IMG/VR virus record: IMGVR_UViG_3300027747_004779
Coordinates: 1-64,000 of that record
Source of the DNA: a virus
Reading direction: 5' to 3' (one strand)
Length of the DNA: 64,000 nucleotides
The notes under the pieces are model-generated. The model worked only from the letters and a program-made list of their open reading frames with translations, searched no databases and was not told the origin of the DNA. The position numbers were made by a program, and so were the translations under genes. Shown in pieces: positions 20,765 through 43,492 of this stretch (its first letter is position 1; every line of letters begins with the position of its first letter).

Positions 20765-22573
20765 TTATACAACTTTCCATGCACCGGATGGTAGGGAAAC
20801 AGTAATACCATTTACGAATTTAATATAATATGTTGTTGTACGGGTAGTCCCGTGTATAGAATCATTGGGAAAGTTGAATGCTAAATCTGTATTTGAATAT
20901 TCACTAGTAAAGTTAATTGTAGCAAATAAAGCAGGATTGGAGACACCGTCTTTTGCAATTTTCATAAACATTTGTGTTCCGGTAGTCGTTGCAGGTTTAT
21001 TATATCGGAACATTCCTTGATTAGCTGTTCCTCCTGTGGGTGATGGGTCAAAGCAAACAAATGTACATCCATTTTCAATAGTACCCGTTCTACTTCCATA
21101 ACTTGTAGTGTTAAGTGTGGGTAAAGGTGTTGATGACGGTGTTGCCGAAGGTGTACTGGGCGGTGTGCGTGTTGGTGTGTTAGAAGGGGTAATGGGTGGT
21201 GTATTAGGTGGTGTGCGTGTAGGTGTGTTTGAAGGAGTAATGGGTGGTGTTGCTGGAGGTGTACTAGGTGGTGTTGATGTCGGTGTGTAAGAAGGTGTAA
21301 TGGGTGGTGTATTCGAAGGTGTAACTGATGGTGTATTACTTGGTGTCAATGAAGGTGTGTTAGAAGGTGTAATGGGCGGGGTATTTGTTGGAGTTTGTGT
21401 AGGTGTCAATGAAGGTGTGTTAGAAGGTGTAATGGGCGGGGTATTTGAAGGTGTAACTGATGGTGTATTACTTGGTGTCAATGAAGGTGTGTTAGAAGGT
21501 GTAATGGGCGGTGTATTTGTTGGAGTTTCTGTAGGTGTAACTGATGGTGTATTTGTTGGAGTTTCTGTAGGTGTAACTGATGGTGTAGTAGAAGGTGTAT
21601 TAGTTTGCGTTAGTGTCTGTGAAGGGGTATGAGTTTGTGTCGGTGGCGGTGTACTAAATGGTGTACGGGATGGTGTATGTGTATTAGTTGGTGTAACTGT
21701 CGGTGTCTGTGTAAGAGTTTCTGAAGGTGTCTGTGAAGGTGACTGGGTGGGAGTAGCCGTATAAGTTGGTGTTACAGTTGGTGTACTACCAACAGTAGCC
21801 ATTGGTGTTGATGTCACGGTGTTAGTGGGTGTCTGTGTTTGTGTTACTGAAGGTGTCTGTGAGGGTGTCTGTGAGGGTGTCTGTGAAGGCGACTGAGTGG
21901 GAGTATTTGAAGGCGTACTGCCTGGTGTTGATGATGGAGTGTTTGAAGGTGTCAGTGTCTGCGTTACAGAAGGTGTTGGTGTAGGAGTTAAAGTGGGAGT
22001 ATTAGAAGGTGTCAGTGTCTGCGTTACAGAAGGTGTTGGTGTAGGAGTTAAAGTGGGAGTATTAGAAGGTGTAGGGTTAGGGTTAGGTATAGTAAAAGTA
22101 TTTGAAGCTAAAACAATATAGCCAGAATTTTTTATAAAATATGTAAATGGCGCGGGTCTCCCTGGTCGATAAGTAATTAATGTTGCTTGCGATGGTGATG
22201 TTGTCTGCACTGCACATAAAGATAAATTATATGTACTAATTAGTGTTGGGATATCGTAAGGATATTGAAATATAGTATATTTTTTAGTTGCATCTCCTGG
22301 TATAGTTATGGAAGCGGGTATAGGCAGATCTGTATCTGTTGTAATAGTAAAGGGTTCTTTAGCAATAACACTGTAGCCATTATTATCATTAAAGGTTGTA
22401 AATTGGGGCGGTCTATTAGGTGTATATGTTAAAAGTGTATAACGGGATGGTGAGGTCGTTTGCACGGAACAGAGATAGCTATTATACGTAGAAATAGAAA
22501 TAGGTGTCGAATTAGTAAATGTTACAATATTATATTTGCGGTTAGCGTCACCTCGAAAAACAATATCTCTCAT
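20765..22573 (-). CDS. Thr/Pro/Ser-rich mucin-like virion protein
   Basis: Duplicated ~80-aa N-terminal domain followed by ~320 aa of TP[ST]x repeats. Confidence 0.8.
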   Translation of the reverse strand: MRDIVFRGDANRKYNIVTFTNSTPISISTYNSYLCSVQTTSPSRYTLLTYTPNRPPQFTTFNDNNGYSVIAKEPFTITTDTDLPIPASITIPGDATKKYTIFQYPYDIPTLISTYNLSLCAVQTTSPSQATLITYRPGRPAPFTYFIKNSGYIVLASNTFTIPNPNPTPSNTPTLTPTPTPSVTQTLTPSNTPTLTPTPTPSVTQTLTPSNTPSSTPGSTPSNTPTQSPSQTPSQTPSQTPSVTQTQTPTNTVTSTPMATVGSTPTVTPTYTATPTQSPSQTPSETLTQTPTVTPTNTHTPSRTPFSTPPPTQTHTPSQTLTQTNTPSTTPSVTPTETPTNTPSVTPTETPTNTPPITPSNTPSLTPSNTPSVTPSNTPPITPSNTPSLTPTQTPTNTPPITPSNTPSLTPSNTPSVTPSNTPPITPSYTPTSTPPSTPPATPPITPSNTPTRTPPNTPPITPSNTPTRTPPSTPSATPSSTPLPTLNTTSYGSRTGTIENGCTFVCFDPSPTGGTANQGMFRYNKPATTTGTQMFMKIAKDGVSNPALFATINFTSEYSNTDLAFNFPNDSIHGTTRTTTYYIKFVNGITVSLPSGAWKVV

Positions 22574-22581
22574 AACAACTA

Positions 22582-23355
22582 TTATGTGGTAAAGTATATG
22601 TCGGTATTATTGCTAAAGATACCTACAAACTGTGCGGTTGATGAGGGTCCCCCTGAGCTTCTATAACCAAATGCTGTTCCTTCTCTATCAGTGGTGTAAT
22701 TTATAAATCCTCTAAAATTACCATCGACATAAATCGTAACAACATTAAAGTCAAGCGATGTACCACCGGGGCTATAATATACTGTGTCTAGATAATTATA
22801 CGGATCGGGCGATAGAATAGATATCTTTTGTATACCATCTTCTGCAAATGCAGGGTTACTTCCTTCTGCGGTTAACGAATATGTAAACGGTGGTATGAGT
22901 GTCGGTGAAGGTGTAACTGACGGTGTTTGAGTTACTGAAGGTGTAACTGACGGTGTTTGAGTTACTGAAGGTGTTACTGAGACTGTAAGCGTTGGTGTGA
23001 GCGATGGTGTTGCAGTTTGTGAAGGTGTATTAGGTGGTGTGCGTGTTGGCGACGGTGTTTGTGTAGGTGTACCAGCAAAACGTGTTGTAGTTGGTGTCTG
23101 CGTTGTAGTCGGTGTAGGTGTATATGTTGGAGTAAGGGAAGGTGTAAGAGAAATGGTTGGAGTAATCGATGGAGTAGGAGTATTAGTAGGAGTGACTGTT
23201 GGTGATGGTGTTACCGTCGGTGTTTTAGTAAAAGTGGGAGTTATACTTGGTGTTGGAGTTGTGGTAGCTGTAGATGATGGTGTAGGAGCAGGTAGATTAG
23301 GTGTTATAGGTATTAACCCTTGACCTCTATTGATTTTAAAAACAAAATTTGGCAT
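22582..23355 (-). CDS. Thr/Pro-rich mucin-like protein
   Basis: ~130 aa of TP[ST]x repeats followed by a small beta domain. Confidence 0.8.
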
Positions 23356-23363
23356 TGTAGTAT

Positions 23364-24980
23364 TTAGTTGAGTGTTATAACCTGATCAACATATGGATAA
23401 TTTGTTACTTCTGCGCGTAAAACGTTTAACATTTTAACTTGGATATCATATATTTTGCGCAAAGCTCTGTTGACAATATTATTAGCAAATATTTCGTTTG
23501 CGCCAATATAATTGGTAATATCTTGTTGAAAGAATATTTCATCTAATTCATCAGGTAATAAGTATCTCGTTCCTTTAAACGTTACATTGCCTTTTACATC
23601 TCGCGCAGCAATATATTTGCCTATAATTTGATCGCGTAGTCTCATATGATTTAATATGAGTTTAGAAAGATTTTTATTAAAGACCCAATTCTGTATATAT
23701 TCTTCTTTATTAAATGACATATCATTAAACGTGTATATATCAAAATCGTTAACAGCTAAAATATCAAATAAGTTTAAATTATCGTAAAAATAGCCAAGCT
23801 TTCCGGTATTACCTGAAACAGAGAATACTATATTATGATCGCTTGTACCATAAAGCGAGGGTGCTGTTGCTAGTGATGTAAATCTATCAGCTGGTACATC
23901 GTATTTAAAGAGATAGAGCAAATACTTGCCAACTATACCGGTAGGCTGGGCGACAAGCTTTTTAAAAATATTTTTGTTTGTTAGCAAATAAAATATATTT
24001 GTATCAGATTGCGAGAATACAATCTTAAGTGGTTTTTCGTCGTACTCTAATATTGAAGAGAGATCAAATATCTCTTTATTAGATATAGCGTTGTTATACT
24101 TATATATTTTTCTGTTTTCAGTTACTACATATAAATTACCATTTACATCTGCACTGATATCTATTGGATATGCAGAAAGAAAGTCTACATATAATCTATA
24201 TGTTTGTACCCAATTTAAATTAAGATCATATTTCTTAATGCTACTATTACCTGAATCCAATATAAAAAGATTATCTTTGTATGTAGTTAGTGATCTCGGG
24301 TCATGAAATTCTGTTTTTGATAGAAAGCTACCATCATTGCCCACAGAATCGACATAAAAAAGTCTATTTTCCGTTACATTATTACCTGTAGTAAATCCCG
24401 ATGCATCGTATTTTGTTAATCTACTTAATTTTGAATCTAATACGTACAGATAATCGTTAGCAACAGCAAAAGCAGTAATATTTGTATAATAAACACCATA
24501 CCCGGCATCAATTTCAGTTTGTGTAAAGACATTGCTAATATAAGAACTATACGAATCAAAATTAAAAACTCTAAGATGTGATCCATCAGTAGTGAACGCG
24601 GAATATTGGTTTTTATCTTTATTCTTTACTAGTAACATTGCATTTGTATGATCCATGCCCACGAGTGTGGGGTCATTATATATGGAAATAAACTGACTTG
24701 TGCTTAGATTTTTTTGCCAGGTAAATTTAGTTGATGCTGCAGATACACCTGCAATTGCAGTTGCAGATATGGGTATAACATTAGATGCAAGTTTACAGTT
24801 TTTATAAAGATAAAGAAAATTATCATATAAATGTTTGAACTTAATGTTTAAAACACTGTAAGTTGCAGTATCATTTGGCTGTATTCTTATATCCTCAAAA
24901 TCGTAAGGTAGATTTATATCTACACCCAGATAGCGATCGTAAATTAACCCTTGCTCTAGGAATTCTGTTGAAATTGTCAT
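23364..24980 (-). CDS. beta-propeller (NHL-like) baseplate-region protein
   Basis: EFHDPRSL....NLFILDSGNSSIKKYD and PIDISADVNGNLYV blades. Confidence 0.7.
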   Translation of the reverse strand: MTISTEFLEQGLIYDRYLGVDINLPYDFEDIRIQPNDTATYSVLNIKFKHLYDNFLYLYKNCKLASNVIPISATAIAGVSAASTKFTWQKNLSTSQFISIYNDPTLVGMDHTNAMLLVKNKDKNQYSAFTTDGSHLRVFNFDSYSSYISNVFTQTEIDAGYGVYYTNITAFAVANDYLYVLDSKLSRLTKYDASGFTTGNNVTENRLFYVDSVGNDGSFLSKTEFHDPRSLTTYKDNLFILDSGNSSIKKYDLNLNWVQTYRLYVDFLSAYPIDISADVNGNLYVVTENRKIYKYNNAISNKEIFDLSSILEYDEKPLKIVFSQSDTNIFYLLTNKNIFKKLVAQPTGIVGKYLLYLFKYDVPADRFTSLATAPSLYGTSDHNIVFSVSGNTGKLGYFYDNLNLFDILAVNDFDIYTFNDMSFNKEEYIQNWVFNKNLSKLILNHMRLRDQIIGKYIAARDVKGNVTFKGTRYLLPDELDEIFFQQDITNYIGANEIFANNIVNRALRKIYDIQVKMLNVLRAEVTNYPYVDQVITLN

Positions 24981-27900
24981 TAATTACTCCACTTTATAGT
25001 ATTTAACCTAGTATGTACCGGAACTGTATTCCTCAAAATACTTACCATACGCTGCTCGAGGGCTTCTCTCAATGAAGAGTCTGTAATACCGCTATTTCTA
25101 ATAATTAAGTTAAAGAGAGTAGACTTAGAGCCTGGTGTATTAAGCTTAAAGTATCGTTCCACTTCTTCAAGATAATTACGCCTGCCACATGCAACATCAA
25201 AGCTTATATCATGAATTTCCATATTCTTTCTAGCATGCATAAACATATCACAGTTATAAAGAGGTGTATCATAGAGATAGAAGTTTTTTACAGTGAAATC
25301 GTTGACTAAAAATGATGTGTTTTTAAGATAAGAAAATAAAGGCACGGAATACGCATAATTAGAAGAGCCTATAAGAAACGGCCTGTATACTATATTACTA
25401 AATTTATATTTTCTTGGCAGAAACTCTGTGTATCCTTGCGGCTGACCATCAATAAACAAGTACATATAGCCACCATCAGCATCAAACCTTACAGCAAAAT
25501 TATGATACCCTGCATCAAGGGCTGAAAGATTAAAGATTATCTCAGTATCAACAGTATCATTAGCGTTAAACACATTTGTGAGTTTAGCTTTAACATTTAA
25601 ATTAGAACTAGCGTACTTATCTTTTACAGTTGTACGAAGGAATTTATCATTAGAAAGATTTAAATTTGCATTAGTTTTAGGATCAAAGAAGCTACTTAAT
25701 TGTGATTTGAAGCTTACAATTGAAAAGTATCCTGCAGCAGATATAGATGTATTAATTAATATACCGGATGGATAAACACTCGATAATGTTTTGCTAGTAG
25801 TAAAAATATTCGCTGGTATTGAAGAATTTGCAATATAGTAACTTGTATACCCGTTTAACTGTGTTGTAGTAAAGGAAGAGATATCTTTACCGTCAAGAGT
25901 AAACTGTGTATATTTTAATTTTGTATTATTATTGACTGCTCTTTGAGTTATAACACAATATCTATTATATTTACCGTTATCAAAATCTGCAGTAAAATTA
26001 ATTTTATAGTTTTTATACCCCGGTTCAAATATATAGCCAGATAAAATAAACTCGCGATTTGCAGTATATTTTGCATAATAATTATCGTTATATAATAACC
26101 AAAGATTATTATCGAAATCAATACTAAAATCTTCTATTTGAGTAGATGAATAAAACGCGGTTGTAATATCCGTTATAACATCGGAGGCATCTATATCTCT
26201 CCAGCGTTGTAATGTATTTTTATCTTGAAGAAAATAAATGTCATTATCTACACGCATTGATTTAATACCCGGGGTAATATACATTTTTTGCGTTTTAGGA
26301 TAGTAATCTAAATTTTTACCTGTTTGTAAAGAGGAATTATATGCTACAACACGCGGATACCTCACTGTGCGGGTTGTAATGTCGGTTACTTCATTTGAAT
26401 TAAAATCTAGAAGATTTAACTTTTTATTATTTGCTCCACCGTTATCAATAAGAGCATATGCAAAAGTTTCTGTATAATCAACGTCAAGTAAATTACCAAG
26501 CTTATCTCCATTTGTTGGTGAAGTGCGTCGAGTCTCTGCATATGCAAGGTTAAATCTACGGAACGTATTATCTTCCATAATTAGATAAAAATCGTTTAAC
26601 CCTTGTTGTCTCATTATGGCTTTGATGTCTGCGTTAAAGCTTAATGAATTTAAATCTTTTCCTTGCAAATTAGTAACTTTTATTGCGCTAGGTGAGTTAA
26701 TAAATAGGGTTGGGGTAACTATATTTTGATTAAAGATTCCAAACCCATCTCTGTCATAGTTACCGACTAGCTGGTAACCAAGCGGAGATTTCCAATCCGA
26801 GCTGTATGCATCAAATATTAATGTAAATTGATTTGAAGCTTGAATAGCAGAGAGCGATCCTGTGGTTGCATATGTCTTTCCATTAAACGCAAATTCTGTA
26901 GTTGCTTCAGTAGAAGAATACACATTAGACATATCATAGTATCTGTAATTAGCAAAATTAAAGCATATTAAGTCTTCTGAAAGTGTATTGATAAAGTTCT
27001 GTACATCTTTTGGCCCGTAGTGATAATATGCGTAATATGTTCCTTTTTCAAAAATTAAATCTGAAGGTTTATCGAAAATATCAACATCCCCGAGTAATTC
27101 AGATGCTTTATTTGCTAAGCAATCAAATAAAGATATATACCTAATTGCTTTTAAGTCTGAAGATGTAAGCGCTTTCATGAATGAAATTGAGTTTGGATTG
27201 TAGTATCGATCAACCCATATTGGCCTTTTGTTAACATCAGCACTACCTGAAAGCCAAGCACATAAAAATTCGCCCGATGTCTCTTCTATAGTATCCCCGT
27301 AGTTAGAAGTATATTTATAGTCAGCTTTTTTCTTAAAAATTTTATCCGATTTTAATGGATGGTCACCAGCTATTGCACCTGCTTCAATAAGACCAGAATC
27401 TTGAATATTTAATCTAGAAAATGGATAAAAGATTTGTGGGATATGAAAGTATGTTACTTTATCTTTTTTAAGAATTATATTTGTTGTATAGCTTTCATAA
27501 TTTAAAGTGATATTATCGTTACCCCGGGTTTGGTTAGATCCTGTAAATAGGTTTTGATATTCTCTAAATTCAATACTTTGTTCGTTAAAGAATGGATTGC
27601 CTCGTGATTGTTTATTTTCAGGTGTATTGGTATTCTTTAATGATAGAATGTTTAAATCTATACTCTTACCTGACGTATTAAAATATTCACTATGCAGTAA
27701 AAGATTTGATGATATATTATCGAAACTACGATCATTATTTACGTCTTGTGAATTGGTTTTTAAATCGCGGTTATAGCTAAGCCACGGATCATATAGCAGT
27801 GTATTATTAGGGATTGGATTTCTAGGCTTAACTCTAAAAATAGAAGATACAGAGTATGGGACAGATGTTGCTGTAACTGGGTTAACAAGAGTTAATTCTT

Positions 27901-28537
27901 GTGTATTAAAATCGAATGTAACATACTTTGGAATATCGTTAATATTTTTTATTAAAACAATGTAGTTATATGAACGATCATAAATGTAATAGAATATTTG
28001 CGGACTTAATGCGCCAATTGCATCAAGCTGAATATCTTTTGTAAAGGAAAGATTACCGGTATAGTCAACAGTTAAATATCTAATAACATTATCATTTTCA
28101 TGTGAAATTTTACAGAATTGCTCTGTTATAAGCTCAATATCATAAAAATATTGGTTATTTATGTTTGTTAAATCACCAGTAACATTTACGTTAGCTATAT
28201 TAACACCAACTCCAGGCTCTTCTACAACCCAGAAACGCGCAGCAGGAGTAAGGGTACCAGCGGCATTAGCAGCAATATAAGAAGAAAAGCCATCATCACC
28301 AAGTTTATTAAGATTGTCAACATAGACCGCACTTGTCAATAAATCTTTTCTAGAAAGAAATATATTAGAGTAGTTATTAATCTTATTATCGTTTACTTCT
28401 CTAAGTGCATCATTGAGAGGTATATTGATACCTTGTTCAGAAAAAACTACATTTTCGTTAAATTTTAACCTATCGTCGTAGACATATCTAGATGTCAACC
28501 CTGTAAAATTTGTGGAATCTAGTGTTATAATGTCCAT
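24980..28537 (-). CDS. large baseplate-region structural protein with C-terminal LamG-like segment
   Basis: GYHNFAVRFDADGGYMYLFIDG motif; position in the tail module. Confidence 0.65.
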   Translation of the reverse strand: MDIITLDSTNFTGLTSRYVYDDRLKFNENVVFSEQGINIPLNDALREVNDNKINNYSNIFLSRKDLLTSAVYVDNLNKLGDDGFSSYIAANAAGTLTPAARFWVVEEPGVGVNIANVNVTGDLTNINNQYFYDIELITEQFCKISHENDNVIRYLTVDYTGNLSFTKDIQLDAIGALSPQIFYYIYDRSYNYIVLIKNINDIPKYVTFDFNTQELTLVNPVTATSVPYSVSSIFRVKPRNPIPNNTLLYDPWLSYNRDLKTNSQDVNNDRSFDNISSNLLLHSEYFNTSGKSIDLNILSLKNTNTPENKQSRGNPFFNEQSIEFREYQNLFTGSNQTRGNDNITLNYESYTTNIILKKDKVTYFHIPQIFYPFSRLNIQDSGLIEAGAIAGDHPLKSDKIFKKKADYKYTSNYGDTIEETSGEFLCAWLSGSADVNKRPIWVDRYYNPNSISFMKALTSSDLKAIRYISLFDCLANKASELLGDVDIFDKPSDLIFEKGTYYAYYHYGPKDVQNFINTLSEDLICFNFANYRYYDMSNVYSSTEATTEFAFNGKTYATTGSLSAIQASNQFTLIFDAYSSDWKSPLGYQLVGNYDRDGFGIFNQNIVTPTLFINSPSAIKVTNLQGKDLNSLSFNADIKAIMRQQGLNDFYLIMEDNTFRRFNLAYAETRRTSPTNGDKLGNLLDVDYTETFAYALIDNGGANNKKLNLLDFNSNEVTDITTRTVRYPRVVAYNSSLQTGKNLDYYPKTQKMYITPGIKSMRVDNDIYFLQDKNTLQRWRDIDASDVITDITTAFYSSTQIEDFSIDFDNNLWLLYNDNYYAKYTANREFILSGYIFEPGYKNYKINFTADFDNGKYNRYCVITQRAVNNNTKLKYTQFTLDGKDISSFTTTQLNGYTSYYIANSSIPANIFTTSKTLSSVYPSGILINTSISAAGYFSIVSFKSQLSSFFDPKTNANLNLSNDKFLRTTVKDKYASSNLNVKAKLTNVFNANDTVDTEIIFNLSALDAGYHNFAVRFDADGGYMYLFIDGQPQGYTEFLPRKYKFSNIVYRPFLIGSSNYAYSVPLFSYLKNTSFLVNDFTVKNFYLYDTPLYNCDMFMHARKNMEIHDISFDVACGRRNYLEEVERYFKLNTPGSKSTLFNLIIRNSGITDSSLREALEQRMVSILRNTVPVHTRLNTIKWSN

Positions 28538-28584
28538 GATAATTATTTATCAATATATTGATTTATTAAAACACATGGTGTTTA

Positions 28585-32838: not shown

Positions 32839-32839
32839 A

Positions 32840-33712: not shown

Positions 33713-33752
33713 ATTATTATTTACTAATAATAGGTATATATACCCGTGAAAA

Positions 33753-36083
33753 CTAACTCTCTTTTCTTAATTCGCTCTTATAATGCGCAAATCTATTATG
33801 TTCTATAGGAGATAGTAATAATACCGCACTGTTTACAGTGCCTTCTTTTGTTAATTGAAAGATATAAGACATCCAAGTTTGTTCAAAAGGATGGGCCCAA
33901 GTAGTTGTTAAAAACATCTTTTTATTACCTTCTCGTGATACAATCTGCGGCCAGTTACAGTAATAAACATCGCCTGTTGCATAGGCTAGACCCTCAAGAG
34001 TTTTAATATTCTTAAATTCAGTCTTTGGTGATTTTGGATCTGTCCCTATTTCAGGAAGTTTACAGTAATTAGGCCAAAACTTTTCACGTATATTCTGTGG
34101 CACATTATACCACGACCATTGTGTGGTGTTATTACCATAAAATTCAGTAAAAGAAAACTTTATAAAGTCCAGCTCTTCCTTATGCATAATTTTATGAATT
34201 TTTGAAAATAGATTAGATACATACCTGGCAAAACCACTCTTACATCTATCACCGTTTTCTTCTAGAAGATACATATCATCCTCTAGAAAAATATAATGCT
34301 TTGCGTCTGTCTTATCAAAATGCTCAGCAATGAATTGTCGACCGCCACATATACCTAGATTATCTTTTTTAATATGCTCAAAATTATACTGCTTACAAAT
34401 TCTCTTATATTCCTCAGTAGTTGACAAATCTGTACTATTATCTAACAAATAATTTGTAGTTTCGGAAATAAATCCTGGGTGTTTGGTATATGACTCGCAA
34501 AGCGTTTCAAATTGTTTCGGTGAATTAAAGGTTATAACATATAAGCTTGTGCCTGCATATTCTTTTACTTTAAGTTTTGCAGCATCTTCAACTTTAGTAT
34601 TTTTTAAATCTTCAAAAAATTTACCAATAAGACCATTTCCATCAATAGAAAATAAACTAAATAAATCGCGATTAAGGTATGTCATAAGAGTGAAAATACT
34701 CTCCTCTGTACCCATATATCCTTCATTAAGAGTCTGTTGCAAGAGCCCGTAATACATTCCGTTAGCTTGACTAATCGTTTCTTTTGGTCCTCCGAAAAAT
34801 CCTCCTCTGCAAACATATTCAACATTTTTTGTTTGCGCAAGTTCATTCATTTTTGTTCTTGTAAATCCATGTATCTCGCCACCCTCGGGATACGGAAAGC
34901 TTATAAACATAAATTTATCAACTATTTTCGAAAGCTTTTCTTGCACTTTATCGTGCGTAAAATACCCCCAGTGCACAGTATTTGTTATACCAGCATCAAT
35001 CCAATAAAATTGTTTAGAGTTAAATGGGTTCCATATTGAAACGTTATTAAGCATAAACATTTTGCTCATAACCAAAGGGTTGTACATTTTTAATTTCGCT
35101 TGCGTCGACTCTGCCAGCCAACCGGCTTGTCCCAGCCATTCAGGCTTTTTGCGTATAGTATCTGTTATATCAGTAAAAGGAAACCATTTTTCGAGTTCCT
35201 GTAAACTCATAGTATTAACTACTGTATTTGATCTACTTCTGTGCTTCCATACCAACTCTTCATCAGCTTTATCAATGAAAATATATAGATTTACAGGTGC
35301 TTTAAGAAGTTCAATAAACTTATCCAAGTACGTCTGATAAGAGCGATGAAAGGATGTACCAATATCTCCTCTTCCTAGATTCCAAAGACCGGTAACGAAC
35401 GTTAGCGAAGAATCAGTTGTTACGGGAAATTTATTTTCTGTTTCTTGTTTCTGTTGTTCTACTTTTTCTGCTATACTGTTTAAATTAATAATAGCTTTAT
35501 GTGGATAATCTTTTTTAATCTCAGTTTCATCAGGTAAATCTATTGTATATATAATTTGATCATTATTTAAAGTATTCTTGTTTAAAAAAACGCCATAATC
35601 ATATCGAACACAAAACGCTGTATAATTTTTATATGTGTCTATAAATTTTCTATAAGTTAATTTATCTTGTACATGTATTTCATGAGTATTACCGTAATGC
35701 TCGCCTTGCGACGCCATAAACGGCACAGCTATTATAACATGTGTTTTAGTATCATCGATCTTGCTTAGTAGTTTTAGAGAATCTTCCTCACTAATATGCT
35801 CTAATACATCGCCAAAAATAATTAAATCATAGGAGTTAAGATCTATATTCGAATTAATTATATTTTCATTAAATACTTTATTATACTTACCTTTGAGTTG
35901 ATAGTCTTCAATATATTTTGCAAATACTTCAACACAATCAAGATTTGTATAACCTAAAGGTTTTAGGAGATTAGAATATGTACCGACACCAGGTCCAACA
36001 TCTAATATTTTTATATCTGTTTTAAAGTTTTTTACAATGTAGTCTAATGTCTCAGTCTTAAAGAAACTCGTAGATACGGGCAT
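33753..36083 (-). CDS. multidomain SAM methyltransferase / HtrL-YibB-like / GT-A protein
   Basis: ILDVGPGVG and FGDVLEH; TFVTGLWNLGR, YWIDAG, GGFFGG, GTEESIF; C-terminal NLGICGGR and FLEDD. Confidence 0.8.
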   Translation of the reverse strand: MPVSTSFFKTETLDYIVKNFKTDIKILDVGPGVGTYSNLLKPLGYTNLDCVEVFAKYIEDYQLKGKYNKVFNENIINSNIDLNSYDLIIFGDVLEHISEEDSLKLLSKIDDTKTHVIIAVPFMASQGEHYGNTHEIHVQDKLTYRKFIDTYKNYTAFCVRYDYGVFLNKNTLNNDQIIYTIDLPDETEIKKDYPHKAIINLNSIAEKVEQQKQETENKFPVTTDSSLTFVTGLWNLGRGDIGTSFHRSYQTYLDKFIELLKAPVNLYIFIDKADEELVWKHRSRSNTVVNTMSLQELEKWFPFTDITDTIRKKPEWLGQAGWLAESTQAKLKMYNPLVMSKMFMLNNVSIWNPFNSKQFYWIDAGITNTVHWGYFTHDKVQEKLSKIVDKFMFISFPYPEGGEIHGFTRTKMNELAQTKNVEYVCRGGFFGGPKETISQANGMYYGLLQQTLNEGYMGTEESIFTLMTYLNRDLFSLFSIDGNGLIGKFFEDLKNTKVEDAAKLKVKEYAGTSLYVITFNSPKQFETLCESYTKHPGFISETTNYLLDNSTDLSTTEEYKRICKQYNFEHIKKDNLGICGGRQFIAEHFDKTDAKHYIFLEDDMYLLEENGDRCKSGFARYVSNLFSKIHKIMHKEELDFIKFSFTEFYGNNTTQWSWYNVPQNIREKFWPNYCKLPEIGTDPKSPKTEFKNIKTLEGLAYATGDVYYCNWPQIVSREGNKKMFLTTTWAHPFEQTWMSYIFQLTKEGTVNSAVLLLSPIEHNRFAHYKSELRKES

Positions 36084-36112
36084 ACAATTATATAATTAAC
36101 TTCAAAAAAATA

Positions 36113-37018
36113 TCAAGACGCGGGTAAATCATATATTCTAGTAAAGACCTTATAGAAACTGTCGCCGTCTTTATCTAGTACACTACAACGTTCACCGGGG
36201 GAATGGAAATACCAAGTATAAAACTTATGAAGTTCGAATAATTCTGGATATGCAGAATATAAAGCACTAAAAATTTGCTCTTCAAGTACATGTACATCTT
36301 TTGTTAGAAAATATTTCAATACATCACTGTAAATAGCAAAAAACTGCTTAAATGGTTCTTTATAGCCGCCAAAAAGCCCGCCAATAAGATGATTTGTCAT
36401 TGGTGATACATTTTTCTTGCAGTATTCGGATATAATATGATGAACCGGTGTAGGGTCGCCTTGAAACGGTAAAGAGCAAAAGAAAAGTTTATCCTGGAGA
36501 ATAGAGTTAGATAAATTTTGACTTAATCTGGGGTTAAAGATATTATTCGGATTATTTGGATAATAGTGTGCCGGTGATATTACACTTAACAATTCAACAC
36601 CGCCAACTCTTTCTGGAAAAATACCATGATGTGTAAGCCCGCTATCAATCCAAAAATATTTGTCTGAGGGAAAATAGTTCTTTTCAATAGTATCGTTAAT
36701 CCAGTATGCTTTACTAAAGCAAAGTGTTTCGTTACGATCGTTTAATGTTATTTTTTTTATAATTCTTTTCTTAAATTCTAATGCCGCTTCACAGAACTCA
36801 AAACCGCTAATGTGATGCGGTATAACCTTAAAATCTTTCATATATGCTGACACTCGGCTCTCTACAATAGGTGCATCTTCATGGCTCGTGTAAATTACAA
36901 TAGGGCAATTTAAATTAGCGATATTTCTTAATGAAGAATCAAAAAAAGATACATCCCTTCCACGGCCGCCATAAATTGTATTAATATTATGGCTATAAAT
37001 AGCTGTTACAAGTGTCAT
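36113..37018 (-). CDS. HtrL/YibB-like putative glycosyltransferase
   Basis: TLVTA, FSK, FWIDSG, GGLFGG, EEQIF; paralog of the central domain of 33753..36083. Confidence 0.75.
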   Translation of the reverse strand: MTLVTAIYSHNINTIYGGRGRDVSFFDSSLRNIANLNCPIVIYTSHEDAPIVESRVSAYMKDFKVIPHHISGFEFCEAALEFKKRIIKKITLNDRNETLCFSKAYWINDTIEKNYFPSDKYFWIDSGLTHHGIFPERVGGVELLSVISPAHYYPNNPNNIFNPRLSQNLSNSILQDKLFFCSLPFQGDPTPVHHIISEYCKKNVSPMTNHLIGGLFGGYKEPFKQFFAIYSDVLKYFLTKDVHVLEEQIFSALYSAYPELFELHKFYTWYFHSPGERCSVLDKDGDSFYKVFTRIYDLPAS

Positions 37019-37746
37019 ATCTCCACTCCAAGCTTACCGTACTTTCTTAAGTTAAGACAATGATCGAAATTTTGCATACTATTTGCAAGAGGATGAATAT
37101 ACGCATTCCATTGATATGTCATTAGATAATGATTTTTATCGTAAGTACCGTTAATGTCCGACTGATTATCGATTTGTGTCACTATAGGATATTTAGCACA
37201 AAAGCTTTTAAATTTAGGATAAATTGCAATGTCAAAATACTGATCTATTGCATTATGCATATGTACGTTTTCTATAATTTCGTTTGTATTCCATTTAGTC
37301 ACCGCTTCTGCTACTCTTCTATTGTAAATAAATCCTGATGTTCCAAATATTCCGCGGTGTCTATTGGGGTCTTTTGGCGGTACATTAGATAAATCTGTTA
37401 AAATACCATCTGGTTTATGTATAGGGCGATGAATCGAGGGAGCAAAGTGAAATAGGTCCCAATCCGTATGGTTTAATGCATTTTCTACATTTTCTAATAA
37501 CACTTTTGCATACGGCATAAAAAACAAATCATCTTCCATGACAATAATATGCTCATCGTTGCTATCTAAAAGCATTTGTGCAATAGCCATGTGCGATAAT
37601 CCGCAGCCAATATAGCTTTTTTTGTCAATACCCTCAAATGCAATAAAATCCCAGCCCATATATTCCATTTCTTTTCTTGAATGCTCAAGTCTATCAGGTC
37701 TTCTTTTAAGGTTTATAATATATTTTTTTATGGAATTAATATTCAT
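37015..37746 (-). CDS. glycosyltransferase family 25-like
   Basis: YIINLKRRPDR, GCGLSH, VMEDD, AID motifs. Confidence 0.85.
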   Translation of the reverse strand: MNINSIKKYIINLKRRPDRLEHSRKEMEYMGWDFIAFEGIDKKSYIGCGLSHMAIAQMLLDSNDEHIIVMEDDLFFMPYAKVLLENVENALNHTDWDLFHFAPSIHRPIHKPDGILTDLSNVPPKDPNRHRGIFGTSGFIYNRRVAEAVTKWNTNEIIENVHMHNAIDQYFDIAIYPKFKSFCAKYPIVTQIDNQSDINGTYDKNHYLMTYQWNAYIHPLANSMQNFDHCLNLRKYGKLGVEI

Positions 37747-38501
37747 GTATTATACCTTAGATTACTTATATCATAATGCCCTCTACGGTGAACAAAAATA
37801 ACAGCGTCATTCTGCATAGCTGTCTGTAAAGTTCTTGTAAAATCTGTCCAGTAGCCATATCTATCGATATCCTGTTTTTTACAGTTATACCGTGATACCA
37901 ATATAGAATATACACTCTGATCATGTCTATGATTCTCTTCATCTCCTACTACACAGCCTTCAATTTTAGAATACTCAAAGGCTTCATTTATTAAAGACTG
38001 GTATTTACCTCGAGACTTATACCCTAAAATACCTGAAGATATAATTGTATCATTAAGCTCACCGTCTGTAGCATTCATTATTTCACGACATTTCTTTTTT
38101 GTAAATGTGCATGTTAAATGAACGTCACCGACTACAAAAATCTCTTCTTTTTCAATAATATCAAACATCTCTTTTATGTCTTTTAATAACATTACACCTG
38201 CATCAAGCCATAATACGTTGTTACCGTAATTTTGCGCATCGTATACGCAAAATAATTTATACGCGTGACCGCTAGGTAATAGATAGTTTTTGTAAGGTAG
38301 CGGGGATAAGCTAGAGAAATTAAGTAGTGTTACTTTTTGTATTTTTGAAAGTATAGACTTATTTTCTTCATCTAAATTTAAGTCGTAAACAAATATTTGA
38401 TCAACAGTATCAAAACTATGTTGATGTATACTACTTATTAATGTCTTTAGCGATTCAAAATAAAGATCGTTAGCTGCTGTAATTACAATGTTTCTATACA
38501 T
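37743..38501 (-). CDS. GT-A fold glycosyltransferase (DUF1647-like)
   Basis: VITAA...YF, VYDL.L, AYK, LWLDAG, NHRHDQS. Confidence 0.75.
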   Translation of the reverse strand: MYRNIVITAANDLYFESLKTLISSIHQHSFDTVDQIFVYDLNLDEENKSILSKIQKVTLLNFSSLSPLPYKNYLLPSGHAYKLFCVYDAQNYGNNVLWLDAGVMLLKDIKEMFDIIEKEEIFVVGDVHLTCTFTKKKCREIMNATDGELNDTIISSGILGYKSRGKYQSLINEAFEYSKIEGCVVGDEENHRHDQSVYSILVSRYNCKKQDIDRYGYWTDFTRTLQTAMQNDAVIFVHRRGHYDISNLRYNT

Positions 38502-39289
38502 TTCTGTATTAAATGCTCGGGGTGAATATACTGTTTTGCTTTTTCAAAATTTTCTTTCACGCTATCGAGCATGGATAAATATAATTCAGGTGTGAGTGTA
38601 GATAATATTTCTGGCAATTGTTCCGGGTCTTTAAAACGTAAAATGCTTGTTGTATTGAAATATTTTTCAATTGCCGGACATCCTAGATAAATAGGAATTG
38701 TACCGGTTAAGAGACAATCTAATAATTTTTCTGTAAAATAATCTTCTTCTTCACTATTTTCAACTACAATAGAAAAATAAAAATCTTTATGTGCTTCTAT
38801 TTTGTATGGAATTCGATTATTGCAACCGCTGCCAAAGAAAGAAATATTAGTAGTTGTTTTTAACATATCATAAATTCTGTGTCGCTGTCTATGGTAACCG
38901 TTCCACTGCTTATCTGAAAAAAGAAAACTCATTAACTGTGTTTTTGGGTATATTTCTAATTCATTCTGCCTTAGCCACGTACCACCGTGAGGTATAAATT
39001 TGAAGTTGTTAATTTTTGTTTCTATATTTCTATAGTAAGAAAATACATATTTAAATTTCTCATAATTTTTAATAATATTATTATAATTGTCGCCGTTAAT
39101 AATAGGTGGCTCTATTATCCATGCATAGTTTTGCTTTGTATTATCTATTGGTTGGTTAAAGCAAAATTTATCTGTATATATACCAATATCATAATCTGCT
39201 ATTTCACGTTGCCAGCCTACCTGCGGGTCAATATAAGGGCAAAGCCCAGGCTGACCTAATAAATTTTCATCAAAAAATCTTATATTCAT
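38483..39289 (-). CDS. glycosyltransferase family 10-like
   Basis: FSIVVENS..DYFTEKLLDCLLTGTIPIYLG. Confidence 0.85.
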   Translation of the reverse strand: MNIRFFDENLLGQPGLCPYIDPQVGWQREIADYDIGIYTDKFCFNQPIDNTKQNYAWIIEPPIINGDNYNNIIKNYEKFKYVFSYYRNIETKINNFKFIPHGGTWLRQNELEIYPKTQLMSFLFSDKQWNGYHRQRHRIYDMLKTTTNISFFGSGCNNRIPYKIEAHKDFYFSIVVENSEEEDYFTEKLLDCLLTGTIPIYLGCPAIEKYFNTTSILRFKDPEQLPEILSTLTPELYLSMLDSVKENFEKAKQYIHPEHLIQKCIETL

Positions 39290-39290
39290 A

Positions 39291-39944
39291 TTAGTTTTTT
39301 ATAAAAATATCGTCTACGTCTAAAGATTTAATATGTGTAAAGCCTTTCTCTACTAAAAAATTCCTTATTTTTTCATCTTTATAGTTATTTTCTAAAGAAA
39401 TAGCAAATATATTGACTTTATTAAAATCGATAGTTTTTAAGACCTTTAATTCATTACCTTCTGTATCTAATGACAAGAAATCTATAGAGCTAATATTATG
39501 CTTATCTAAAAGCGTTTGAAGCGTTACAGTCTTAACTTTTATGATTTCTTTACTACCACCATAATGATGTATTTCGCCGTCTATTCTCCCTACATGCTTA
39601 GGTTCATATTCTTTAACTAGCCCGCTTAGCATCTCAGCGTAGCCATGCACTAATAAAAAATCATCTTCACCTTCATTATCTGATATTGCATAATTTTCAC
39701 ATATACATTTTCTATTAGCTTTTAACTGATCAAATATATTAGGTATTGGTTCAACGCAAAGACCTGTCCAACCAATCGATTCAAAATACTTACTATTTGA
39801 ATATGTAATGCCGTCGTGGGCCCCCACATCTACAAACACACCAGCTTGCTTGTTTTTAAAATATGTGTCGTTTAAATACCTATCTTGACCTAATTGGCTA
39901 CAATAATCCACAACAGTATTTATTAATAGTTGATTTCTGGCCAC
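39291..39944 (-). CDS. FkbM-family methyltransferase
   Basis: SQLGQD, FVDVGAHDG..SNS, GWTGLCVEP, IDFLSLDTEGNE; the start may be ~11 codons downstream. Confidence 0.9.
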   Translation of the reverse strand: MARNQLLINTVVDYCSQLGQDRYLNDTYFKNKQAGVFVDVGAHDGITYSNSKYFESIGWTGLCVEPIPNIFDQLKANRKCICENYAISDNEGEDDFLLVHGYAEMLSGLVKEYEPKHVGRIDGEIHHYGGSKEIIKVKTVTLQTLLDKHNISSIDFLSLDTEGNELKVLKTIDFNKVNIFAISLENNYKDEKIRNFLVEKGFTHIKSLDVDDIFIKN

Positions 39945-40465
39945 TGAACTGATGTATATTTTTTAACTTCTTTAAGCAGTTGTTCGGTAGTCTCGAGACT
40001 CTCCTCTGCAAGAGCGCGCCAATGCCATTCGATATTTAATTCTGTTATAATAGACATATTATCATCTTGTATAAGTTTTCTAAGAACGCTATATTCTGCA
40101 CCTTCTATATCCATCTTAACAAAAACACGATCTCTACCTCTAAATTGCGAAATAAATTTAGAAAAGTCAATAGTTTCTATGGTTTGCTGAATAGAATAAG
40201 GTTGCTTAGAACTAAGAGATTCGAGAGTTGATCCTTCACCGATACCCTCACAGTTAAAAACACTTTCACCATCAGCTATCCAGACAGCTTTATTAAACGC
40301 GGTGATTTTCCACGGATGTTGACTTATTCTCTCTTGAATTTTACAGAGCGGGTTAGCTTCAAATGCATATGTTTCCCAATCGCCATGTTGACATCCACAC
40401 CACTCACCAATTGCAGCCATTTTTTCGCCAAAATGATAGCCGCAATCGATAAAGACTTTATTCAC
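39923..40465 (-). CDS. FkbM-family methyltransferase
   Basis: FIDCGYHFGE, YAFEANP, VKMDIEGAEY, IEWH. Confidence 0.9.
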   Translation of the reverse strand: MNKVFIDCGYHFGEKMAAIGEWCGCQHGDWETYAFEANPLCKIQERISQHPWKITAFNKAVWIADGESVFNCEGIGEGSTLESLSSKQPYSIQQTIETIDFSKFISQFRGRDRVFVKMDIEGAEYSVLRKLIQDDNMSIITELNIEWHWRALAEESLETTEQLLKEVKKYTSVQWPEINY

Positions 40466-40468
40466 TAG

Positions 40469-41740
40469 TTAACTTACAGTATTATGTAGCTGGCCTGTAA
40501 TAGGTTCACACCATCCTTTACTAACACTATGCGGCCAAACAATCCAGCTAGAAGGCAATACATCTGTGTTAAATTCTCTCCAAACTTTGCAATAGTTGTC
40601 TGGGTCTTTTAACATTCTGTCTATCTCTGCTTTATCTGCATCTTTTCTATAAAGATCTTTTCCGGCTTTATCTTTAAAAGCAACACACCAAAAATCATAG
40701 TCTTTTTCAGGAACTTGTTGATACCCTACATCAATACAATGCTTAAAAATACTAAGAAACGATTTTTCATACTCTTCTTTAGTTAAATTATTGTTAGGAT
40801 TTGGTGGGTAATTACGTTCAAGTGTATGTTTTTGTATAGCGCGCTTCTTAAACGAAAGACCAGAATATCTTTCATAGTCTTCTAATGTACGGATTTTACC
40901 GAAATCATATTTTCCAAAATCGATATCTTTCTTTAATCCGTCCATTTGAAAGAGCTTTCTGTTTCTTAAGTGAGACTCCTCATTCCATTTACCCCAGCTC
41001 TTACTGTCATCCCAGTGTTTGGTCCTACCTTTTCTGGTATATTCGTGCCAAGCAATCACCATATGAGGGTGGAAGAGATCATAGCCCCAAGTGTATGATC
41101 TAACAGCAAGATTAATCTCCTCGCCATGAAAATAATAATATGGATCATATGGTACTTCTTTAACCCATTTTCCGAGAGTAAAAATAAAATGAGCTGATAC
41201 AAAGCGTGAAGGTACAGGCTCGGTTCGTTCTTTAAAGTCATCTATTGAAGCCGGTAAGAAAAATACAGCACCTTCAGGGATAAATCTATCAAAATCCATC
41301 TTCCATGGGATATGAATTCTTGCTTGTGGGTCATTATCTGGATCGAAGCTCGAAATATAGCCGGTCAAAAGGGGCTTTTTATGACCTTTCTTTTGAAGCT
41401 GCTTAACCATATCTATACACTTTACATCCCAGTCCTTAACAAAGCGGTGGTGGCTATCTAATTGTAGGTAATACTTCTCACCATTGTAATTTTTCTGTAT
41501 CTCACTGCGGGCCCAGCAAGTGCCGCGACTATCTTGATAAGGAATGTCAATAACTTTAACTCGTGGATCTTTAGCAAACTCTTCTAACGACTCTGTATCA
41601 TCACGCTGCCAACAAATACTAAATACTAAATTTTCTGGATTCTTAGCATTAGCAATACAATCTTTTAAGGTTGGAACTAGTTGCGGATCTCTATAAGAGG
41701 CAATGGAAATAAATATTTTGTCAGCTTTAGATTTACTCAT
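40469..41740 (-). CDS. GT60-like polypeptide alpha-GlcNAc transferase
   Basis: IFISIASYRDP, SRGTCWAR, YYLQLDSHHRF..DWD, PYDP..YFHGEE, RTLEDYE. Confidence 0.85.
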   Translation of the reverse strand: MSKSKADKIFISIASYRDPQLVPTLKDCIANAKNPENLVFSICWQRDDTESLEEFAKDPRVKVIDIPYQDSRGTCWARSEIQKNYNGEKYYLQLDSHHRFVKDWDVKCIDMVKQLQKKGHKKPLLTGYISSFDPDNDPQARIHIPWKMDFDRFIPEGAVFFLPASIDDFKERTEPVPSRFVSAHFIFTLGKWVKEVPYDPYYYFHGEEINLAVRSYTWGYDLFHPHMVIAWHEYTRKGRTKHWDDSKSWGKWNEESHLRNRKLFQMDGLKKDIDFGKYDFGKIRTLEDYERYSGLSFKKRAIQKHTLERNYPPNPNNNLTKEEYEKSFLSIFKHCIDVGYQQVPEKDYDFWCVAFKDKAGKDLYRKDADKAEIDRMLKDPDNYCKVWREFNTDVLPSSWIVWPHSVSKGWCEPITGQLHNTVS

Positions 41741-41782
41741 TTAGTTATTTTATACGATAACATTAATAAATCAATAACAAGC

Positions 41783-43492
41783 TTAAGGTTTCGAACGCGA
41801 AGGTGTATTCGTCGGTGTGCGGGTAAGTGTTGGCGTAGGTGTTCGCGTCGGTGTCTGCGTTCTTGTGGGTGTTTGTGTTGGGGTATGTGTTCTAGTAGGT
41901 GTCTGCGTAGGTGTTAATGTCTGCGTTATAGTAGATGTTGGAGTTGGTGTACGGAAAGGCGTAAATGAAGGTGTCTGAGTCGGTGTATTAGATGGCGTCA
42001 CTGTTGGTGTTTGTGTATTGGTTGGCGTCCCAGTAGGTGTTTGTGTTTGTGTTCTAGTAGGCGTCTGTGTGGGCGTTGATGTACGCGTTGGTGTATTAGT
42101 TGGTGTTCTTGTAGGTGTCTGTGTTCTCGTAGGTGTCTGTGTTCTCGTAGGTGTCTGTGTATTGGTTGGCGTGACAGAAGGTGTTCTCGTTGGTGTTTGT
42201 GTCTTTGACGGGGTAACAGAAGGTGTTATCGTATTAGTAGGTGTCTTAGTTGGCGTTCGTGTTTGTGTTGGTGTATTTGTAGGTGTAACGGAAGGAGTTT
42301 GTGTATTTGACGGTGTTACAGATGGTGTTTGTGTATGTGATGGTGTCACAGACGGTGTTATCGTGTTAGTAGGTGTCTTAGTTGGCGTTCGTGTTTGTGT
42401 TGGTGTATTTGTAGGTGTCTCAGAAGGTGTTGGCGTATTGGTAGGTGTCTCAGAAGGCGTTTGTGTCTGTGACGGGCTAACAGAAGGTGTTGGTGTAATA
42501 GTGGGTGTCTCAGAAGGCGTTTGTGTCTGTGACGGGCTAACAGAAGGTGTTGGTGTATTGGTAGGTGTCTCAGAAGGTGTTGGTGTTTGTGTAAGTGTTG
42601 ATGTATATGTCAATGTAACAGACGGTGTTTGAGTTGGTGTTTGTGTTTGAGTTGGTGTTTGTGTTGGTGTCGGTGTTTGTGTTGGCGTCTGTGTAGGTGT
42701 ACTAGTATGTGATGGTGTTACAGAAGGTGTTTGTGTATGCGATGGTGTCACAGACGGTGTTTGTGTTTGCGTCGGTGTTTGCGTCGGTGTTTGTGTTGGG
42801 GTGACAAAAAAGCCATTTTCATTAATATTTCTAACTGCGAATACTGTATTTTTATCGCTATTACTAAACCCTATGCATGGATATACTGTAGGTGGCATTT
42901 CAGCGGGCATGTTGATATCAAATATGTTATAAAATTTGTTATTAATCTTATGATCGAGAATAATATTTTTTCCGAAATTGGACACTGTTAATCTAAACAC
43001 TCGATATGCAGGTATTGCAGGTGACTGACGGTAAAGATAAAACGGTTCATCGAACTTTGAGCTTGCTAGATTTTCAGTACGATGAATTAATGAATATCCA
43101 GATTCGTAGTTGCCTCTTACGCTAACTGTATTAGAAGCCGGTTCTGCATAACCATCTAGCGGCCAGAAATTAGATCCGAAATTTCCTGTAATATCAAAGC
43201 CAACAACAAGGCTTGCGTTTACAACTCCAGGAAAATAAACAAACCCCGCTTCGCCAGATACTCCAACAATTTCCGTTGCGCCTAATGCTGGACCTGGTCC
43301 ACCGGTTCTACCTGTTGATTGAAGGTTTCTACAGTCAACAAAAAATAGTGAAAAGCCTTCAGCCCCGCTTAATGTATCGCCATAGCAAGCGTACTCTAAT
43401 GATACTATAAAATCTTTGGAAGTATCAATGGTCTTGTAATCATATACAACAGATGTACGATCTTGTGGGCTAAATGAATAAAATAATGCCAT
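41783..43492 (-). CDS. L-type (ConA-like) lectin domain plus mucin-like C-terminal tail
   Basis: GAEGFSLFFVD..GG.G..LG..LVVGFDITGNF; ~335 aa of TP[ST]x repeats. Confidence 0.75.
   Translation of the reverse strand: MALFYSFSPQDRTSVVYDYKTIDTSKDFIVSLEYACYGDTLSGAEGFSLFFVDCRNLQSTGRTGGPGPALGATEIVGVSGEAGFVYFPGVVNASLVVGFDITGNFGSNFWPLDGYAEPASNTVSVRGNYESGYSLIHRTENLASSKFDEPFYLYRQSPAIPAYRVFRLTVSNFGKNIILDHKINNKFYNIFDINMPAEMPPTVYPCIGFSNSDKNTVFAVRNINENGFFVTPTQTPTQTPTQTQTPSVTPSHTQTPSVTPSHTSTPTQTPTQTPTPTQTPTQTQTPTQTPSVTLTYTSTLTQTPTPSETPTNTPTPSVSPSQTQTPSETPTITPTPSVSPSQTQTPSETPTNTPTPSETPTNTPTQTRTPTKTPTNTITPSVTPSHTQTPSVTPSNTQTPSVTPTNTPTQTRTPTKTPTNTITPSVTPSKTQTPTRTPSVTPTNTQTPTRTQTPTRTQTPTRTPTNTPTRTSTPTQTPTRTQTQTPTGTPTNTQTPTVTPSNTPTQTPSFTPFRTPTPTSTITQTLTPTQTPTRTHTPTQTPTRTQTPTRTPTPTLTRTPTNTPSRSKP

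Follow-up and report, generated by a model that had tools for sequence, protein, structure and literature searches.

The window analysed here comprises the first 64 kb (64,000 nucleotides) of an IMG/VR virus record of 157,857 bp, IMGVR_UViG_3300027747_004779, estimated to be 74% complete and labelled G000 below (G-numbers denote records, and L-numbers the loci used in comparisons). The record comes from an uncultured T4-like phage, and positions 16958-52030 were assigned by PHROG, Pfam and tblastn to a baseplate/fibre module, all genes of which lie closely spaced on the minus strand. Within this module, at 20765-43492, five genes with long Thr/Pro-rich (TP) tracts occur together with a block of eight enzyme genes (33753-41740) that includes a glycosyltransferase (GT) of family GT60, and the two groups are considered here as candidate acceptors and enzymes of a phage-encoded protein O-glycosylation system.

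TP-rich tracts were defined as 30-residue windows with at least 60% Thr, Ser and Pro. Period-4 tracts of the form (T/S)-P-(T/S)-x amount to 1,467 residues in the five genes, where a preliminary description of this DNA, made from its letters, had counted more than 1,200; 550 of them are in the two tracts of 28585-32838, the gene whose start lies one base behind the stop of 32840-33712 (window 32836-32842). Over whole proteins, Thr makes up 21-27% and Pro 11-18% of the residues in four of the five, with lower values for the 290-aa product of 32840-33712, and within the tracts Pro accounts for 15-18%, the repeat being dominated by Thr, which is also its most regular residue. The tract DNA consists of higher-order tandem repeats of degenerate sequence (period 12-132 nt), like mucin genes, and the strong local GC skew is a consequence of the tracts. 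All five genes encode the dense Ser/Thr/Pro tandem-repeat domains expected of mucin-type acceptors.

The domains at the ends of these proteins are for the most part without a match in Pfam or PHROG, including both ends of 20765-22573. Lectin, RCC1 and protease heads had been described for the TP proteins, and the latter two were recovered, both in 28585-32838, which matched Pfam RCC1 and WD40_RLD, RCC1 PHROGs, and, in its protease-like N-domain, phrog_20754 ('protease', E = 2.5e-12); the lectin head found no hidden Markov model support in Pfam or PHROG. In most close relatives, GT60 is immediately preceded by the ortholog of 41783-43492 (N-domain plus TP tract). Two relatives, L010 and L013, have the N-domain of 32840-33712 joined with a TP tract and an RCC1 head in one open reading frame (ORF), and by sequence the arrangement of 32840-33712 and the 1,417-aa gene looks like an insertion into, or a split of, a formerly single fibre gene. 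Further TP proteins are the tail-fibre protein 16958-20680 and, outside the window, the 694-aa product of G000 125218-127302, which may be a neck fibre or whisker. The 694-aa protein is laid out as a short N-terminus, a TP tract, a leucine-rich-repeat-like segment, a second TP tract and a Gly-rich C-terminal domain (phrog_2295).

Characterised GT60 enzymes transfer alpha-linked N-acetylglucosamine (alpha-GlcNAc) onto Thr of Thr/Pro-rich mucins or onto Skp1 hydroxyproline (Hyp), and the family, which requires Mn2+, is the protist counterpart of the animal GT27 enzymes (PMC8724618, PMC3769586). The product of 40469-41740 belongs to this family, matching PF11397 with E = 9.8e-72 and 242.8 bits, above the curated cut-off of 21, with profile positions 2-44 and 95-351 covered. 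In the alignment, D95-S96-H97 is invariant in 18 homologues, down to 41% identity, and is of the DxH motif type used by GT27 enzymes. An AlphaFold2 (AF2) model (pLDDT, predicted local distance difference test, 88.9) was compared with the PDB, and the best 29 entries were all GT27 polypeptide N-acetylgalactosamine (GalNAc)-transferases (Z 19.3-22.6, ~276-284 aligned residues, 3.5-3.8 Å, 12-15% identity), with other GT-A enzymes at Z ≤18.1, giving a GT27-related GT-A fold with a DxH/DxD motif. PDB sequence searches with GT60, and with the profile of the two-domain partner described below, returned chance matches only. The C-terminus of the enzyme forms a beta-rich conserved domain of ~90 aa (residues 331-417) that the GT27 alignments do not cover, the aligned residue count staying level when alignment ranges reach into it; in the model this domain is placed like the animal lectin domain, and it could bind the acceptor or its glycan.

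The eight genes of the block were found as a contiguous series of ORFs between TP genes, as first described, and the Pfam searches bore out the assignments of GT60, two FkbM methyltransferases and GT10-, GT25- and HtrL-like proteins. For 37743-38501, previously called GT-A, a weak GT8 match below the cut-off was obtained (E = 0.0018). The fusion of methyltransferase, HtrL and glycosyltransferase proposed for 33753-36083 was recovered in its first two parts (class-I methyltransferase, residues 13-111; HtrL, residues 226-481), and the C-terminal third is without a Pfam match but has conserved GT2-type motifs (NSP, DNS.D and EDDM) and a GT-A fold. Residues 225-776 of the fusion, which hold the HtrL-like and GT2-like domains, are referred to as the partner (model pLDDT 85.6), and Foldseek placed two-GT-A enzymes at the top of the matches to them, namely LH3, LARGE1, Mimivirus R699, K4CP and PmHS2. 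Membrane helices were absent from all eight enzymes, with a maximal 19-residue hydropathy of ≤1.53, and the families they match are soluble glycosyltransferases or methyltransferases. The features are collected in Table 1.

Table 1. Candidate acceptors, enzymes of the block and neighbouring genes (window coordinates unless marked G000)
Position	Strand	Feature	Evidence
20765..22573	-	TP-rich protein, 602 aa: duplicated N-terminal domain, 351-aa (T/S)P(T/S)x tract, 100-aa C-terminal domain; candidate acceptor	composition
22582..23355	-	TP-rich protein, 257 aa: 159-aa tract, 88-aa C-terminal domain; candidate acceptor	composition
28585..32838	-	Modular protein, 1,417 aa: protease-like N-domain, 335-aa TP tract, small middle domain, 215-aa TP tract, RCC1 beta-propeller; candidate acceptor	Pfam, PHROG, composition
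32840..33712	-	290-aa protein: conserved 226-aa N-domain, 64-aa TP tail	composition, relatives
41783..43492	-	TP-rich protein, 569 aa: conserved 226-aa N-domain, 343-aa TP tract to C-terminus; directly upstream of GT60; candidate acceptor	composition, relatives
G000 125218-127302 (L346:7218-9302), outside window	+	Sixth long-tract protein, 694 aa, ~270 aa of tract; between portal and neck/head-closure genes	composition, phrog_2295
40469..41740	-	GT60-family glycosyltransferase, 423 aa, soluble; proposed initiating polypeptide N-acetylhexosamine (HexNAc)-transferase	Pfam PF11397, AF2 model
39923..40465	-	FkbM-family methyltransferase, 180 aa	PF05050, E 8.6e-11
39291..39944	-	FkbM-family methyltransferase, 217 aa	PF05050, E 2.4e-23
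38483..39289	-	GT10-like protein (fucosyltransferase C-terminal domain), 268 aa	PF00852, E 2e-12
37743..38501	-	Probable GT-A glycosyltransferase, 252 aa	PF01501 (GT8), E 0.0018, below cut-off; 57% identical homologue in L032
37015..37746	-	GT25-like glycosyltransferase, 243 aa; cassette member	PF01755, E 3e-14
36113..37018	-	HtrL-like protein, 301 aa; variable cassette member, only in some relatives	PF09612, 33.8 bits, short stretch only
33753..36083	-	Three-domain enzyme, 776 aa: class-I methyltransferase (1-~200), HtrL-like GT-A (226-481), GT2-like GT-A (~505-776)	Pfam, alignment, model
16958..20680	-	Tail-fibre protein, 1,240 aa; short TP linker of 32 aa (residues 381-412)	tail-fibre PHROG families, best E 2.5e-79
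23364..28537	-	Two conserved late proteins, 538 and 1,185 aa, without TP tracts, syntenic in relatives	ORFs, relatives' synteny
43495..46701	-	Late protein, 1,068 aa, conserved; synteny anchor	alignment, 79 related loci, tree
46710..52030	-	PKD-domain protein (1,155 aa) and baseplate wedge subunit (617 aa)	PKD match; phrog_219

Scanning IMG/VR with GT60 yielded 41 related viral loci. Most of these, like the Xanthomonas jumbo phage XacN1, encode the HtrL+GT2-like two-domain protein along with GT60, and the genes between the two vary from phage to phage; from these sequences we read the pair as a fixed core that would initiate and extend, and the intervening enzymes as a swappable finishing cassette. 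The N-terminal methyltransferase of the fusion is missing in most other relatives, and in L004 (13876-14530) and L007 (14310-14949) it is replaced by an unalignable domain of similar size, which amounts to cassette exchange at the level of a domain. Three short contigs of low GC content (0.29-0.31) in bacterial metagenome-assembled genomes, L266, L268 and L280, carry a GT60 of 51-67% identity and the partner, L280 additionally holding homologues of the structural genes of the window; these are probably phage contigs that were mis-binned.

In 31 of the 41 viral loci, TP tracts are found no more than 10 kb from GT60, mostly in the gene directly upstream. Relatives of the structural protein 43495-46701 (the anchor family) numbered 79; in the rows tallied on the anchor-protein tree, TP tract amounting to at least 180 aa was present in all GT60-positive rows (24/24), against TP tracts in 3/35 GT60-negative rows, all of them small fragments, with none in the remaining 32 (raw Fisher p = 1e-13, kinship ignored; only 2-3 independent contrasts on the anchor-protein tree). 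Large GT60-negative relatives (90-225 kb, one complete) gave zero pattern hits. When the 38 anchor records without GT60 in the flank were searched, only G049 and G015 were found to carry it elsewhere, 37-42 kb from the anchor, and both have TP tracts despite this distance; tracts were also present in G051, the contig of which ends before the expected GT60 position, and in G071, a 25-kb fragment. The GT60-negative G071 (record of L231) holds at C1:22454-22728 a pure (Thr-Pro)n tract of period 2, unlike the period-4 tracts associated with GT60. The strict DNA pattern, which admits Thr only, under-detects Ser- or TQT-rich tracts (G096 and G093 scored 0-1 yet have long tracts), so that a zero score in a small fragment does not show that tracts are absent. 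In G093 (98% complete), four ORFs with TQT/TPT tracts, one of them cut by the contig start, lie ~55 kb from a GT60 block like that of the window.

The pairing recurs in five further phage lineages, in XacN1 and in some bacterial loci. The lineages L029/30, L034/35 and L036-43 are non-syntenic, and G093 and G096 also hold both. Sampling was also carried out from the side of the tracts, using 47 IMG/VR records chosen solely for TP tracts, and 8 of these encode PF11397, far in excess of any plausible base rate. The examination of related phages for joint occurrence of GT60 and TP genes, which the preliminary description had put forward as a check, thus returned a transferase tied genetically to its candidate acceptors, by the anchor-family counts, the distal pairs and the recurrence, albeit over few contrasts.

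XacN1 shares with the window the enzyme pair (ORF334, GT60-like, 46% identical; ORF330, HtrL+GT2-like, 40% identical) and period-4 TP tracts in five large ORFs (ORF236, 237, 370, 372 and 384). It differs in being a Rak2-like jumbo phage of a gamma-proteobacterium, in which replication genes are close to the pair and a carbamoyltransferase separates its two members. Purified XacN1 virions contain at least two Schiff-stained glycoprotein bands of unassigned protein (PMC5852040, Suppl. Fig. S4), which are suggested in that paper to be made by the phage's own glycosyltransferases (PMC5852040); as a hint, these bands are the strongest experimental pointer to self-glycosylation of appendage proteins. 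Other cultured carriers of GT60 are Xoo-sp13 and the Stenotrophomonas phages RAS14 and CM1. In bacteria, at least 566 genome hits to GT60 were obtained. The composition filter yields many spurious off-frame hits in high-GC bacterial loci, and the analysis was confined to low-GC loci and to ORFs immediately before GT60; a TP-tract protein was found directly upstream of GT60 in several loci, with an Rv2525c-like glycoside-hydrolase domain in four, and judging from these sequences such neighbours may be a bacterial version of the enzyme-acceptor pair. The loci with an Rv2525c-like, Ser/Thr/Pro-rich protein are L324, L330, L345 and L332, contigs from more than one bacterial phylum (among them Sphingomonas and Novosphingobium), the ORFs ending at ~9,990.

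On this evidence, GT60 probably initiates O-glycosylation of the phage's own TP-tract proteins, a reading that we hold with modest confidence. The system would be a phage-encoded, cytoplasmic, mucin-type protein O-glycosylation acting late in infection, in which the soluble GT60 would start the glycan on Thr, and on some Ser, of the (T/S)-P-(T/S)-x tracts; the sugar that it transfers would most likely be alpha-GlcNAc, with UDP-GlcNAc as the donor. Six or seven proteins from the neck and baseplate/fibre modules would be modified in this way. The next sugars would be attached by the two-GT-A partner (33753-36083, residues 225-776), and the swappable GT25-, GT10-, GT8- and HtrL-like transferases and three methyltransferases would complete and cap the glycan. 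This would yield extended stalks, densely glycosylated and resistant to proteases, each linking a conserved N-terminal attachment domain with a variable head (RCC1 propeller, protease-like or other). In this scheme we infer the acceptor, the donor, the order of steps, the location in the virion and the biological role.

Family, fold, solubility and co-occurrence all speak for the proposal, made in the preliminary description, that GT60 primes the TP tracts of the phage and that the other enzymes extend the glycan; the small number of independent events and the existence of TP tracts without GT60 do not. Several points weigh against it. Glycosylation is deduced from the genes of an uncultured phage, and membership of the TP proteins in the virion from gene position. 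The GT25, GT8, GT10 and HtrL families are, by their Pfam descriptions, best known from the synthesis of lipopolysaccharide (LPS) and lipo-oligosaccharide (LOS). With so few contrasts on the anchor-protein tree, a sign test cannot reach significance. GT60 was lacking in 39 of the 47 TP-selected records, including 7 of the 8 that are at least 90% complete, so that TP tracts do not require GT60, and G085-G092 bear GT60 with no TP tract in the available part of these records (6-53% complete).

The same family memberships, together with the many phages that have TP tracts without GT60 and a variable cassette resembling O-antigen-type diversity, could mean that the block builds or alters another glycoconjugate (host LPS or LOS, a capsule-like polysaccharide or a small molecule) and that the tracts are unglycosylated flexible linkers in the same variable region. 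We consider this unlikely, because the block encodes no membrane protein, and the flippase, polymerase and membrane-embedded lipid-priming transferase of a lipid-linked polysaccharide or LPS locus were not found among its eight genes by Pfam and hydropathy, because the nearest folds of GT60 are protein-modifying enzymes, and because GT60 and TP tracts are paired even when 37-55 kb apart and are both missing in sister clades.

Glycosylated TP proteins might also be destined for a place other than the virion, as decoys released at lysis, as enzymes that bind a matrix or cell surface, or as assembly factors, in keeping with the lack of PHROG structural matches in their end domains and with the protease-like domain of one of them. 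However, the TP genes sit between the baseplate wedge and tail-fibre genes and between portal and neck genes, a conserved N-domain followed by a stalk and an exchangeable head matches the build of fibre proteins, and the bona fide tail-fibre protein 16958-20680 likewise has a TP linker, all of which makes a non-virion role rather improbable.

Action of GT60 on hydroxyproline, as by Dictyostelium Gnt1, after prolyl hydroxylation of the tracts appears very improbable. PF11397 centres on the Skp1-Hyp GlcNAc-transferase, a soluble enzyme of the cytoplasm, the phage protein is also soluble and of ~420 aa, and the tracts contain 15-18% Pro; but Thr is the more regular residue of the repeat, and no 2-oxoglutarate-Fe(II) (2OG-Fe(II)) prolyl hydroxylase of the kind that precedes Skp1-type glycosylation (PF13640, PF13661) was found in the 158 kb of G000 (74% complete; controls positive), hydroxylation by a host enzyme being possible. 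That the block glycosylates phage DNA, in the manner of T4 glucosyltransferases and newer hypermodification systems, is scarcely credible: T4-like phages often glycosylate hydroxymethylated bases, and diverse glycosyltransferases are documented in phage DNA glycosylation, but GT60 matches polypeptide transferases in fold, the block lies within the late structural module and tracks TP tracts, and no hydroxymethyl-base pathway was found in G000, in which a thymidylate-synthase-like hydroxymethylase and a TET/JBP dioxygenase were sought (same 74% completeness; the TET search was positive in no control genome and carries little weight).

Across 20765-46701, intergenic gaps range from -22 to +47 nt, and the enzyme block is co-directional with the late structural genes. 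The PKD-domain protein and the baseplate wedge subunit identify the module as baseplate/tail, the wedge gene (50177-52030) matching phrog_219 with E = 1e-43 and cyanophage baseplate wedge genes by tblastn. Scans of the window for sigma-70 promoters and terminators gave hits at chance level, as did the T4 late motif TATAAATA, which showed no enrichment. By eye, a TAAATA(A/T)-like motif was seen 4-15 nt before the starts at 52511, 33712, 28537, 20680 and 16949, and the GT60 start (41740) is preceded by a variant of it, TATAAAATAA.

If the phage glycosylates its own fibres, cytoplasmic synthesis of mucin-like glycoproteins would extend to a large, abundant group of freshwater phages (T4-like and jumbo) as well as to many bacteria. 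Swappable glycan coats on phage fibres would be relevant to host recognition, to resistance against proteases, to adhesion to mucus or polysaccharide matrices, and to how phages used in therapy are recognised by the immune system. It might then be possible to trace the mucin-type and Skp1 glycosylation of eukaryotes back to prokaryotic or viral enzymes. The proposal is directly testable, with cultured carriers in existence and enzymes that are small and soluble. To our knowledge, glycosylation of phage-particle proteins has been shown only in a few mycobacteriophages, and mucin-type initiation by GT60 or GT27 enzymes is regarded as a eukaryotic trait; literature searches returned no paper linking GT60 to phages or to prokaryotic mucin-like proteins.

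Among known systems, the protist GT60 enzymes share with the phage enzyme PF11397 and a GT-A fold with DxH, and a ricin-type lectin domain may be absent from the phage enzyme as well. Dictyostelium Gnt1 acts on Skp1-Hyp, and Gnt2 and Trypanosoma cruzi TcOGNT-2 act on Thr-rich mucins (PMC8724618, PMC3769586); Gnt1 is soluble like the phage enzyme, and the candidate phage acceptors are Thr/Pro-rich repeats like protist mucins. The phage version differs in being viral or prokaryotic, in having late proteins from the bacterial cytoplasm as its putative acceptors and in the extra ~90-aa beta-rich C-terminal domain. In the Skp1 pathway, too, a GT60 enzyme is followed by a bifunctional two-domain glycosyltransferase (PMC8724618), PgtA, with GT2 and GT74 domains in place of the HtrL-like and GT2-like domains of the window partner; papers and the protein atlas gave no evidence either way on a link between HtrL and GT74, the fucosyltransferase domain of PgtA. 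It is conceivable, though improbable, that GT60 and its two-GT-A partner are the viral or prokaryotic counterpart, and possibly the source, of the eukaryotic Skp1 pathway (Gnt1 and PgtA) and of mucin-type initiation, the partner being a LARGE1/K4CP-like co-polymerase that would grow a long repeating glycan on each primed Thr, giving true 'proteoglycan' fibres in which the exchange of cassettes would reshuffle the type of glycan; the polymerase activity in this picture is pure speculation.

The animal GT27 enzymes are the nearest solved structures (Z up to 22.6) and have the DSH metal-binding motif and dense Ser/Thr/Pro repeat acceptors in common with the phage system, whereas the phage enzyme, 12-15% identical to them, belongs to a different CAZy family, is without a membrane anchor and may lack the ricin lectin domain. 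LARGE1, K4CP, PmHS2, LH3 and Mimivirus R699 are the best fold matches to the partner over both domains (E 2.5e-11 to 1e-7), and LARGE1 likewise extends an O-glycan on a mucin domain, but the TM-scores are 0.22-0.29, low because the domain arrangement differs, at ~10% identity. In the serine-rich-repeat adhesins of Gram-positive cocci, GtfA/GtfB prime very long Ser/Thr repeats with O-GlcNAc in the cytoplasm, and strain-variable glycosyltransferases, including bifunctional two-domain enzymes, then extend the glycan; that system differs in that the priming enzyme is a GT4 with a GT-B fold and the acceptors are exported bacterial adhesins, of non-viral origin. In mycobacteriophages (Che8 and relatives), phage-encoded glycosyltransferases modify the phage's own structural proteins in the host, and the glycan coat has been shown experimentally (Freeman et al. 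2023, as cited in PMC11256854), the acceptors there being capsid (and tail) subunits rather than long mucin-like repeats and the enzymes being other than GT60. Virion glycosylation in mycobacteriophages and the chemistry of GT60 in protists are already known.

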